Part shown: in pieces, positions 35,322 through 37,723 of the stretch
Layout of the letters: each line of letters starts with the position of its first letter
Numbering within the stretch: position 1 is the stretch's first letter
Source: Escherichia phage HF4s
DNA length: 39,390 nucleotides
Reading direction: 5' to 3' (one strand)
Sequence record: MT833387.1
Translations under genes and position numbers: made by a program
The notes under the pieces: generated by a model
The model's database searches: none
Seen by the model: the letters and a program-made list of their open reading frames with translations, nothing else
What the model was told of the DNA's origin: nothing

Positions 35322-35970
35322 TGGCAGCAAATACCGAAATATTTGGGTAGTTGGCGATCTGCACGGATGCTACACGAACCTGATGAAAAAACTGGAGACG
35401 ATAGGATTCGACACCAAAAAAGACCTGCTTATCTCGGTTGGCGATTTGGTCGATCGCGGTACAGAGAACGTCGAATGCCTGGAATTAATCACATTCCCCT
35501 GGTTCAGAGCTGTACGTGGAAACCATGAGCAAATGATGATTGATGGCTTATCAGAGCGTGGAAACGTCAATCACTGGCTGCTTAATGGCGGTGGCTGGTT
35601 CTTTAATCTCGATTACGACAAAGAAATTCTGGCTAAAGCTCTTGCCCATAAAGCAGGTGAACTTCCGTTAATCATCGAACTGGTGAGCAAAGGTAAAAAA
35701 TATGTCATCTGCCACGCCGATTATCCTTGTGATAAATACGAGTTTGGAAAGCCAGTTGATCATCAGCAGGTAATCTGGAGCCGCGAACGAATCAGCAACT
35801 CACAAGACGGGATCGTGAAAGAAATCAAAGGCGCGGACACGTTCATCTTTGGTCATACGCCAGCAGTGAAACCACTCAAGTTTTCCAACCAGATGTATAT
35901 CGATACCGGCGCAGTGTTCTGCGGAAACCTCACATTGATTCAGGTACAGGGAGAAGGCGCGTGGGCATAA
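35299..35970 (+). CDS. ninI: Ser/Thr protein phosphatase NinI
   Basis: [24 protein letters not shown]... with GDLVDRG and GNHE metallophosphatase motifs, as in lambda PPase. Confidence 0.9.
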
Positions 35971-36479
35971 GAGAACTAAACCTCACCAAAGAGCAGCACG
36001 AGTGGCTGAATGGCTGGCTTGAACTGTGGGGCGCATGGGTTTATTCAGGTCGTCTGGAAAAGCGCATGAGCAGCGTAATAGCGAAGTTCATGGAGAGCGT
36101 AGAGCCGGGAAGAGTTATGACAAGGCCAATGTGCAATGATGATGATGGAATGTTGATTTCTCAGGTCGTCGATTCCGTCATGTACATCGACAAAAAAGCC
36201 TTTGGCATCCTCCTCAGCTACTACGCTCATGGTTCATCTAAGCGAGCAATTGCATCCTACTATCACGCGACTGCAAAGCCACGCAAGATGTGTGGACGTG
36301 GTGGCGAGGGATGGAGAAAACCTTCACTGGCAACCTGTAGAAACGAAATTGACGACATCCTGAAAGCGTCATTATTTGTTTTGTACCAACCAATGCAAAA
36401 TGCTTTCAAAATGCGTAAACGTGTTGAGAAAGTTAAGCATGTTGCTGTTAAAAACCTTGACATGCAATTAGCCATTTAG
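35961..36479 (+). CDS. Q: late-gene antiterminator Q (QuuD / phi21-Q type)
   Basis: 172 aa immediately upstream of the late leader and lysis cassette; shares LxxWGAW and PxCxDDD motifs with DLP12 QuuD-type Q proteins. Confidence 0.65.
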
Positions 36480-36496
36480 CCATAATTAGAGGGTAA

Positions 36497-36537
36497 GCTG
36501 CCGTTAGTGACTCTTAAGTTGCAACGGTGGCTTTTTT
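36497..36537 (+). terminator. tR'-like intrinsic terminator
   Basis: 9-bp stem with two G-U pairs followed by a T6 run, 18 nt after the Q stop. Confidence 0.55.
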
Positions 36538-36541
36538 ATTT

Positions 36542-36616
36542 GGGTCAGTCGTATAAAGGTCATTACGGAAGGCTGTTAACCTTCTTATCGTGGTTCGAGT
36601 CCACGCTGTCCCGCCA
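36542..36616 (+). tRNA. tRNA-Asn (anticodon GUU), phage-encoded
   Basis: Cloverleaf by hand: acceptor GGGTCAG/CTGTCCC (one mismatch), anticodon stem GAAGG/CCTTC with loop CTGTTAA, T-arm CGTGG-TTCGAGT-CCACG, encoded CCA. Confidence 0.55.
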
Positions 36617-36621
36617 AATAT

Positions 36622-36697
36622 GCTGGTTTAGCTCCAATGGTAGAGCAGTCGCCTTGTAAGCGAATGGGTAGCGGTTCAAGTCCGTTAACCAGCACCA
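36622..36697 (+). tRNA. tRNA-Thr (anticodon UGU), phage-encoded
   Basis: Perfect 7-bp acceptor GCTGGTT/AACCAGC, D-arm GCTC-CAATGGTA-GAGC, anticodon loop CTTGTAA, T-arm AGCGG-TTCAAGT-CCGTT, encoded CCA. Confidence 0.6.
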
Positions 36698-36939
36698 TAA
36701 CTGAGCCGTAGCCACTGGCTATCCTGAATTCATCAGTGATAGTTACGCTGCGGCCTTCTACACATGACCTTCGTGAAAGCGGGTGGCATGAGGTTGCGCT
36801 AACAACCTCCTGCCGTTTTGCCCGTGCATATCGGTCACGAACAAATCTGATTACTAAACACAGTAGCCTGGATTTGTTCTATCAGTAATCGACCTTATTC
36901 CTAATTAAATAGAGCAAATCCCCTTATTGGGGGTAAGAC

Positions 36940-37263
36940 ATGAAGATGCCAGAAAAACATGACCTGTTAGCCGCCATTCTCGCGGCAAAGGAACAAGGCA
37001 TCGGGGCAATCCTTGCGTTTGCAATGGCGTACCTTCGCGGCAGATATAATGGCGGTGCGTTTACAAAAACAGTAATCGACGCAACGATGTGCGCCATTAT
37101 CGCCTGGTTCATTCGTGACCTTCTCGACTTCGCCGGACTAAGTAGCAATCTCGCTTATATAACTAGCGTGTTCATCGGCTACATCGGTACTGACTCGATT
37201 GGTTCGCTTATCAAACGCTTCGCTGCTAAAAAAGCCGGAGTAGAAGATGGTGGAAATCAATAA
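36940..37263 (+). CDS. S: holin, lambda S type with dual start
   Basis: 107 aa, essentially identical to lambda S ([22 protein letters not shown]...); upstream stem-loop as in lambda. Confidence 0.95.
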
Positions 37264-37723
37264 TCAACGTAAGGCGTTCCTCGATATGCTGGCGTGGTCA
37301 GAGGGAACTGATAACGGACGTCAGAAAACCAGAAATCATGGTTATGACGTCATTGTAGGCGGAGAGCTATTCACTGATTACTCCGATCATCCTCGCAAAC
37401 TTGTCACGCTAAACCCAAAACTCAAATCAACAGCAGCCGGGCGCTATCAGCTTCTTTCCCGTTGGTGGGATGCCTACCGCAAGCAACTTGGCCTGAAAGA
37501 CTTCTCTCCGAAAAGCCAGGACGCTGTGGCATTGCAGCAGATTAAAGAGCGTGGCGCTCTACCGATGATTGATCGCGGTGATATTCGTCAGGCAATCGAC
37601 CGTTGCAGCAATATATGGGCTTCACTTCCGGGGGCTGGTTATGGTCAGTTCGAGCATAAGGCTGACAGCCTGATTGCAAAATTCAAAGAAGCTGGCGGAA
37701 CAGTCAGAGAGATTGAGGTATGA
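37247..37723 (+). CDS. R: endolysin, lambda R-type lytic transglycosylase
   Basis: 158 aa, near-identical to lambda R. Confidence 0.95.

Follow-up and report, generated by a model that had tools for sequence, protein, structure and literature searches.

What do two interleaved inverted repeats do in the late leader of a lambdoid phage, about 50 nt before its holin gene? For lysis timing the lambda S holin serves as a textbook model, in which the known RNA control consists of the sdi hairpin and an intragenic stem-loop. In the genome of Escherichia phage HF4s (MT833387.1; the window analysed here is this whole stretch of 39,390 nt), a first-pass annotation had described a 9-bp and a 7-bp repeat in the order A-B-A'-B', and had proposed that they form mutually exclusive hairpins or a pseudoknot, as an RNA switch or processing site that controls lysis timing. 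We have asked whether the arrangement exceeds chance, which of the pairings is kept in related phages, and which readings of the site are compatible with the answer.

The late leader and its interleaved repeats

The setting of the repeats is defined by the following landmarks.

35961-36479, Q antiterminator gene (PF06530 match)
36457-36486 (+), pR'-like late promoter, TTGACA-18-CATAAT, just 3' of the Q gene (11/12 positions in the promoter scan)
36495-36543 (+), tR'-like intrinsic terminator: hairpin at 36495-36533, then the U run UUUUUUAUUU (fold −20.2 kcal/mol, z −3.47)
36542-36616 (+), tRNA-Asn(GTT) (ARAGORN; Rfam RF00005)
36622-36697 (+), tRNA-Thr(TGT) (ARAGORN; Rfam RF00005)
36919-36933 (+), sdi stem-loop, nt −21 to −7, sequestering the GGGGG Shine-Dalgarno of Met1 (fold −9.7 kcal/mol)
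36940-37263 (+), S holin/antiholin gene with dual start, Met1 at 36940 and Met3 at 36946 (ORF list; PF05106, 2.4e-30)

The promoter at 36457-36486 is strong and sigma-70-like, and the terminator at 36495-36543 makes of all downstream sequence a Q-dependent late leader; with Q, promoter and terminator upstream of the repeats and S downstream of them, their original placement in the late mRNA leader is correct. The stretch between tRNA-Thr and S is a leader of 242 nt, after which come S and then R. In a BLAST search against phage records the segment 36700-36945 is 97.2% identical to lambda 44946-45191, and the repeat site is thus that of the lambda late leader just 5' of S. The lambda homology begins exactly at the 3' end of tRNA-Thr; the idea that lambda's leader holds a vestigial tRNA 3' end was considered and rejected, as the similarity merely starts after the tRNA. 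The two tRNA genes, Asn-GTT and Thr-TGT, are part of the Q-dependent late leader, with the terminator on their 5' side and the S leader on their 3' side, an arrangement found also in Salmonella phages S135 and vB_ST415_1NRH; since both upstream tRNAs are excised, the 5' end of the leader in this phage is necessarily made by processing.

The sdi stem-loop precedes ATGAAGATG and the Met-Lys-Met dual start, and belongs to the lambda sdi control element; its position and its role in the control of the Met1 Shine-Dalgarno are described in bioRxiv 10.1101/2025.05.14.654169, citing Chang et al. 1995. The stem covaries between lineages (CCCC/GGGG versus CCUCACG/CGUGAGG). It lies outside the interval 36839-36890 that holds the repeats, which are therefore separate from it, as had been claimed. 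The elements of the leader upstream of sdi are listed below.

36785-36814 (+), P0, a 12-bp hairpin with loop CGCUAA upstream of the repeats (inverted repeat I2; −16.3 kcal/mol, z −5.0)
36839-36847 (+), A, GAACAAATC in DNA and GAACAAAUC in RNA, 5' arm of hairpin P1 (inverted-repeat search)
36849-36855 (+), B, GATTACT (GAUUACU) (inverted-repeat search)
36871-36879 (+), A', GATTTGTTC, 3' arm of P1 (inverted repeat I4)
36870-36882 (+), extended A', GGAUUUGUUC(UAU), GGATTTGTTCTAT, 5' arm of helix P2 (inverted repeat I1)
36884-36890 (+), B', AGTAATC (AGUAAUC), lineage-specific partner of B (inverted repeat I7)
36909-36921 (+), A'', AUAGAGCAAAUCC, or ATAGAGCAAATCC in its full 13-nt form, 3' arm of P2 (inverted repeat I1)

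All four arms of A:A' and B:B' are perfect complements in the order A-B-A'-B', with linkers of 1 nt (36848), 15 nt (36856-36870) and 4 nt (36880-36883) between them, and 49 nt separate the end of B' from the S ATG (36940); the repeats themselves and their distance from S are confirmed. The arrangement is real and unusual: perfect inverted-repeat pairs interleaved in this way (at least 9 plus at least 7 nt, within 60 nt) occur once in the window, at this site, against a mean of 0.055 in 200 dinucleotide-preserving shuffles of the window, and in none of 5000 shuffles of the 241-nt leader. Taken alone, the 9-bp stem is not unusual window-wide (6 observed, 5.1 expected) and is present in only 2.4% of the leader shuffles. 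B:B' alone is weak: given the A:A' hairpin, an equally good duplex between loop and downstream sequence appears in approximately 2% of loop shuffles, and in isolation the B..B' hairpin has a stability typical of shuffled sequence (−5.8 kcal/mol, z −0.58). The 11-nt sequence CAGTAATCGAC stands at 36883-36893, where it contains B', and again, as an exact direct repeat, at 37070-37080 inside the S coding region (2 occurrences in the window, 0.01 expected); it may be a hint to the origin of the lambda-specific B'.

Conservation of the pairings among related leaders

Conservation was assessed in 272 related contigs, which yield 78 distinct leader sequences of about eight lineages (lambda type, epsilon34/P22, HK620, L104/L163, L161, L015, L193, L210, and others). 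The leaders were obtained by BLAST against phage records, by a protein-based search of species genomes, and by four anchored collection scans, of which three were anchored on A', A'' or A, each together with SD/ATG, and the fourth on a linker motif plus SD/ATG, with A, A' and A'' left free. The three scans that fix one element inflate the apparent conservation of that element within the scan concerned. The statistics on helix alignment (cells paired, RNAalifold, energetics) refer to a set of 27 diverse leaders.

Pairwise identity is 0.87 for A, 0.99 for A' and 0.92 for A''; the two loops have 0.49 and 0.53, B has 0.35 and B' has 0.56. Indels between lineages are confined to the loops. A' is invariant in 33 of the 33 unique homologous sequences retrieved by the scan that places no constraint on A, A' or A'', and its only variants in the whole sample are GGGTTTGTTC, which is compensating (7 contigs), and GGATTTGTTA, which concerns the terminal base (3 contigs). 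This near-invariance would fit a segment obliged to pair with two partners. Because A, A' and A'' vary so little, the compensatory evidence is thin: P1 has a single double change, and the extension of P2 has one or two; most substitutions are A to G transitions, a common class anyway.

The homologues reached in species genomes through the S protein are mostly lambda DNA contamination of assemblies: the short contigs L133-L170 (Cohnella, Flavobacterium, Kitasatospora, various MAGs) carry lambda S and its leader at 98-100% identity, and this is almost certainly lambda control DNA. Holins 81-83% identical to S in prophages of Intestinirhabdus, Citrobacter and Apirhabdus (L171-L173, L184) are preceded by an unrelated leader with its own terminator; what these leaders keep is a short, sdi-like hairpin, such as CCGAACUAUCGG before AGGUGAGG, in which the Shine-Dalgarno is sequestered, and since it occurs there without the P1/P2 leader, the sdi principle is wider than the P1/P2 module. 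One and the same leader, including its sdi-like hairpin, stands before class I holins (lambda S, P22 13) and before class II holins starting MYRMD (PS119, S135, VSe13), as is seen in L007, L008, L009, L011 and many IMG/VR loci, with the recombination junction between leader and holin falling in the sdi loop; judging from these sequences, the leader is a module that passes from one dual-start holin to another.

The two interleaved pairings fare very differently across this sample. For the pseudoknot or competing hairpins of the first-pass annotation, conservation of the pairing in related phages was the test set beforehand, and the B:B' half fails it. Among the sampled lineages AGTAATC is present only in lambda-type leaders, and in the 27-sequence alignment just 26-49% of the B:B' cells are paired. 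The duplex between the P1 loop and the segment joining A' to A'' reaches −7.9 kcal/mol (z −2 to −3 versus shuffled loops) in the lambda type only; in every other lineage the duplex between the two loops has a z near 0. Within the lambda type, B' is changed to AGTAACC (several contigs), AGAAATC, AGTAATA or AGCAATC with B unchanged, and these four substitutions leave the duplex, otherwise at −7.9 kcal/mol, with about −3 to −4 kcal/mol. Moreover, recombinants are found that join a lambda-type B to an epsilon34-type 3' half (L241) or show the reverse (L292, L074).

These results bear directly on the reading of the site as an H-type pseudoknot, or as two exclusive hairpins A:A' and B:B', that would act as an RNA switch for lysis timing. 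The perfection of both repeats, the rarity of their interleaving by chance and the energy of the lambda-type loop-loop duplex all speak for it, and in the A-B-A'-B' order of two perfect complements the lambda-type sequence does have the stem order of such a pseudoknot. Unlike in an H-type pseudoknot, the second stem is neither conserved nor covarying (S2 is lost while S1 is kept), and its added stability, estimated from hairpin and duplex energies, does not go beyond chance; it also competes with the conserved inner stem of P1, which occupies 5 of the 7 B bases, and a linker of 4 nt spanning a 9-bp stem would be strained in the classical H-type geometry. Together with the absence of B:B' from all lineages other than the lambda type, the uncompensated changes in B', the recombinants and the poor z of the lone B..B' hairpin, this makes the pseudoknot or B:B' switch very improbable indeed in our estimation. 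The interleaving of B:B' is probably a peculiarity of the lambda lineage, coincidental and not functional as pairing.

The 9-bp repeat does belong to a structured RNA, in keeping with the earlier proposal: A:A' is the base of the hairpin P1, which is conserved in all lineages (90.1% of cells paired in the 27 leaders). P1 (36839-36879) is imperfect, with approximately 10 bp, an internal loop and a 5-bp inner stem that uses most of B, pairing 36851-36855 (UUACU) with 36862-36866 (AGUAG); the core TAC..GUA of the inner stem is kept across lineages. Both P1 and its inner stem are in the MFE and centroid structures, P1 in local as well as full-leader folds, and in isolation P1 has −12.5 kcal/mol, with z −4.65 versus shuffles. 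Variants of A have A to G opposite U (GGACAAACC, GAGCAAACC, GAACAAGCC) or U to C at position 8, which leaves either a mismatched C.A or, if the register shifts, a single bulged A; leaders of the L193 type have, opposite the C at position 8, an A to G in A' (GGGTTTGTTC), a compensation from U:A to C:G. The apical loop ranges from 18 to 44 nt, and the L015 type has an apical insertion of 25 nt that pairs with itself as a hairpin, as well as a CCGA:UCGG extension.

A natural deletion of about 70 nt in phage mEp235 (L010:640-830), equivalent to approximately 36824-36892, removes A, B, A' and B' and keeps P0, A'' and sdi, with the G-run GGGGC in place of GGGGG. As mEp235 is a viable isolate without P1, P1 is dispensable and the element is not essential. 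A cmscan of 36300-37300 against Rfam 15 (E<=1) returned only the two tRNAs and two far-sub-threshold chance matches. As regards a role as intrinsic terminator, P1 is followed by CUAUCAGUAAUC and P2 by CCUUAUUGGGGG, neither of which is a U-tract; the promoter/terminator scan called no + strand terminator in 36300-37300 and no promoter-like site in the P1/P2 region.

The helix of the leader that covaries best is P0, in which 7 of 12 pairs change on both sides among the 27 sequences. In a Shimwellia prophage (L137:1026-1240) the apical part of P0 is inverted, from GCGCTAAC to GTTAGCGC, as expected of hairpin-mediated template switching, and the TAA in the P0 loop serves, in phages of the P22/epsilon34 type, as the stop codon of a small annotated ORF (gp63-like). 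A conserved CUUCGUG (36769-36775) at the 5' edge of the leader module has two complements, UCACGAA (36835-36841), overlapping the 5' end of A, and CAUGAAG (36939-36945), at the start codon of S; the latter pairing is in the full-leader MFE, and the former is broken without compensation in one natural variant (UUCGCGA). Both are possible long-range closures. A coding role for the 50-aa ORF at 36736-36888, or for mini-ORFs over P0 and A, was rejected on the basis of frame-shifting indels and the lack of a Pfam match.

P1, P2 and the start region of S

A'' nearly repeats A, in direct orientation, and A' is thus complementary to two flanking elements. The segments 36870-36882 and 36909-36921 can pair over 13 nt, all pairs being standard in RNA when U.G wobble is counted, and the resulting helix P2 (10-13 bp) has the arm A' in common with P1 and cannot coexist with it. 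With the last 3 nt of A'' (UCC, 36919-36921) the 5' arm of sdi begins, so that full P2 and full sdi are mutually exclusive. P2 has −14.5 kcal/mol and z −4.63 in isolation. It is the RNAalifold consensus helix, with 10/10 bp in 27/27 sequences and only U:A to U.G changes; over 13 bp 93.9% of cells are paired, and at the first extension pair 12 sequences have A:U and 6 have U:A. Mutually exclusive pairings of the kind first proposed do, then, appear to exist, as P1 and P2, but the conserved competitor is A'' and not B:B'.

The leader has the features of a bistable one, with one segment complementary to two others, both helices conserved, and the two close in energy. When six core pairs are enforced, the ensemble free energies of P1 and P2 are approximately 0-4 kcal/mol apart in most lineages; P1 is the more stable in 22 of the 27 sequences and P2 in the others, and in three sequences P1 is favoured by 4-6.6 kcal/mol. 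Because the model favours P1 by up to 6.6 kcal/mol, formation of P2 without a trigger may be rare. In the P1 state the probability that the Met1 Shine-Dalgarno is unpaired does not exceed 0.04 in 21 of 27 sequences; in the P2 state this probability rises (0.09-0.56) in 25 of 27, with the opposite in L248 and L265. For the lambda type, the nearest-neighbour model prefers a helix of 36894-36905 with 36926-36937 over sdi, whose pair probability is only 0.14, and the thermodynamic picture of this region is therefore unreliable. That helix, CUUAUUCCUAAU with AUUGGGGGUAAG, has 12 bp of which 3 are G.U, covers both Shine-Dalgarno sequences and is in the MFE; a motif related to it, UUCCUAAUU, is conserved in several other lineages, while the full helix is not.

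These observations can be read as follows. The 52-nt site would belong to a structured RNA module of the Q-dependent late leader, common to lambda-, P22-, HK620- and related phages, that toggles between P1 plus sdi on one side and P2 on the other; we give this reading slightly less than an even chance. P1, the predicted ground state, would be the first to form as the leader is transcribed, and would leave A'' free, allowing sdi to close and the known start-site choice to operate. If A were removed or occupied, through 5' processing, decay or a bound factor, A' would pair with A'', and P2 would invade or weaken sdi and thereby expose the upstream Shine-Dalgarno; P2 would also be a new stable hairpin near the 5' end. 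From this we infer that the module may tune holin/antiholin initiation and possibly the stability of S mRNA. It is a bolder claim, and one that we hold to be unlikely, that the three-element toggle A/A'/A'' couples an upstream event (leader processing or decay, including tRNA excision, or a host factor) to the opening of sdi and so shifts the holin:antiholin ratio.

Other readings of the leader and its likeness to known systems

In a reading without switching, P1 would stabilise the lysis-gene mRNA at its 5' end, or mark it for processing by RNase III or RNase E, and the complementarity of A'' to A' would be a secondary matter. It is especially plausible in this phage, where tRNA excision upstream would leave a new 5' end and where, with tRNA genes directly upstream, the leader must be processed. 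Both hairpins, P1 and P0, are conserved and stable, and P1 dominates the predicted ensemble; to go by the title of Daniels et al. 1988 (PMID 2849240), as cited in PMC7547250, the lambda late leader reportedly also has RNase III processing sites. What a static P1 leaves unexplained is A'', which retains an identity of 0.92 with only pairing-compatible changes while the loop that flanks it has diverged. The long tR' hairpin of lambda, furthermore, is an equally good RNase III candidate, and P1, with about 15 bp and an internal loop, is shorter than typical RNase III substrates. We see in the static hairpin an appreciable but minor chance. If P1 were only a stabilising hairpin the result would be an ordinary one, yet the pseudoknot reading would still be corrected.

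The remaining readings dispense with pairing altogether. GAACAAAUC(C) is present three times, twice in direct and once in inverted orientation, and these copies might be sites for a factor acting in trans, either a protein or a small RNA, or protein sites at the level of DNA: they lie within 83 nt, they are conserved as sequence, and the GGA of A' may stand in a context loosely resembling that of CsrA sites. However, the spacing varies from 18 to 44 nt between A and A' and from 26 to 32 nt between A' and A'', which is hard to square with phased DNA sites, and the region holds no promoter-like site. The substitutions, too, are strand-asymmetric, with A to G opposite U in A and A'' and never the mirror U to C in A', and the rest of the window shows no enrichment of the motif (6 one-mismatch matches against 3.4 expected, three of them being this cluster), so that sites of this kind seem improbable. 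It could also be argued that the leader is young, travels with the lysis cassette and has no function here, its complementarities being accidental. Of 5426 complete E. coli genomes, 1113 carry a nearly identical copy of the lambda-type leader, which means that much of the apparent conservation is recent spread, and mEp235 lives without P1. Yet between lineages the loops are about 50% identical as against 87-99% for A, A' and A'', the indels keep to the loops, and the helices are far better than shuffles (z about −4.6); we rate the absence of function as highly improbable.

To return to the toggle between P1 plus sdi and P2, we found no published description of either helix in a search that included the literal sequence; the classic papers on the late leader and on S translation were outside our reach, and an earlier account is possible. 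If the toggle exists, start-site choice would depend on the context or processing of the leader, an extra layer of lysis timing in the best-studied phage lysis system. This would bear on quantitative models of the lysis clock, on engineered lysis cassettes, whose leader is often truncated, and on the exchange of one leader module with unrelated dual-start holins.

Several known systems resemble the leader in part. RNase III hairpins, such as the sites of the lambda late leader or those of the T7 R1.1 type, are likewise imperfect hairpins with an internal loop in a polycistronic phage leader; P1 differs from them in having only about 15 bp, and its cleavage is undocumented in the literature we found. 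With trp-type attenuators and hok-type refolding the leader shares a central segment, A', that is complementary to two flanking ones, A and A''. Unlike in trp-type attenuators, neither P1 nor P2 is followed by a U-tract and there is no conserved leader peptide: between lambda, P22, epsilon34 and HK620 the short ORFs over A change frame and length, because of 1-nt indels. The likeness to hok, which encodes a small membrane toxin, extends to the fact that P2 touches the ribosome-binding region of a lethal membrane-protein gene; in contrast to hok mRNA, no antisense RNA or processing step is known for the P1/P2 leader. The leader is also related to the sdi and dual-start (S107/S105) control of lambda S. 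While sdi is a local 5-bp hairpin at −21 to −7 that has been defined genetically, P1 and P2 occupy −101 to −19 and are known here from sequence. They are part of the same mRNA and adjacent to sdi, P2 overlapping its 5' arm at 36919-36921, and the leader module accompanies the dual-start holins of class I and class II alike. P1/P2 would thus be placed as a candidate cis-acting, alternative-helix leader that extends the sdi system.
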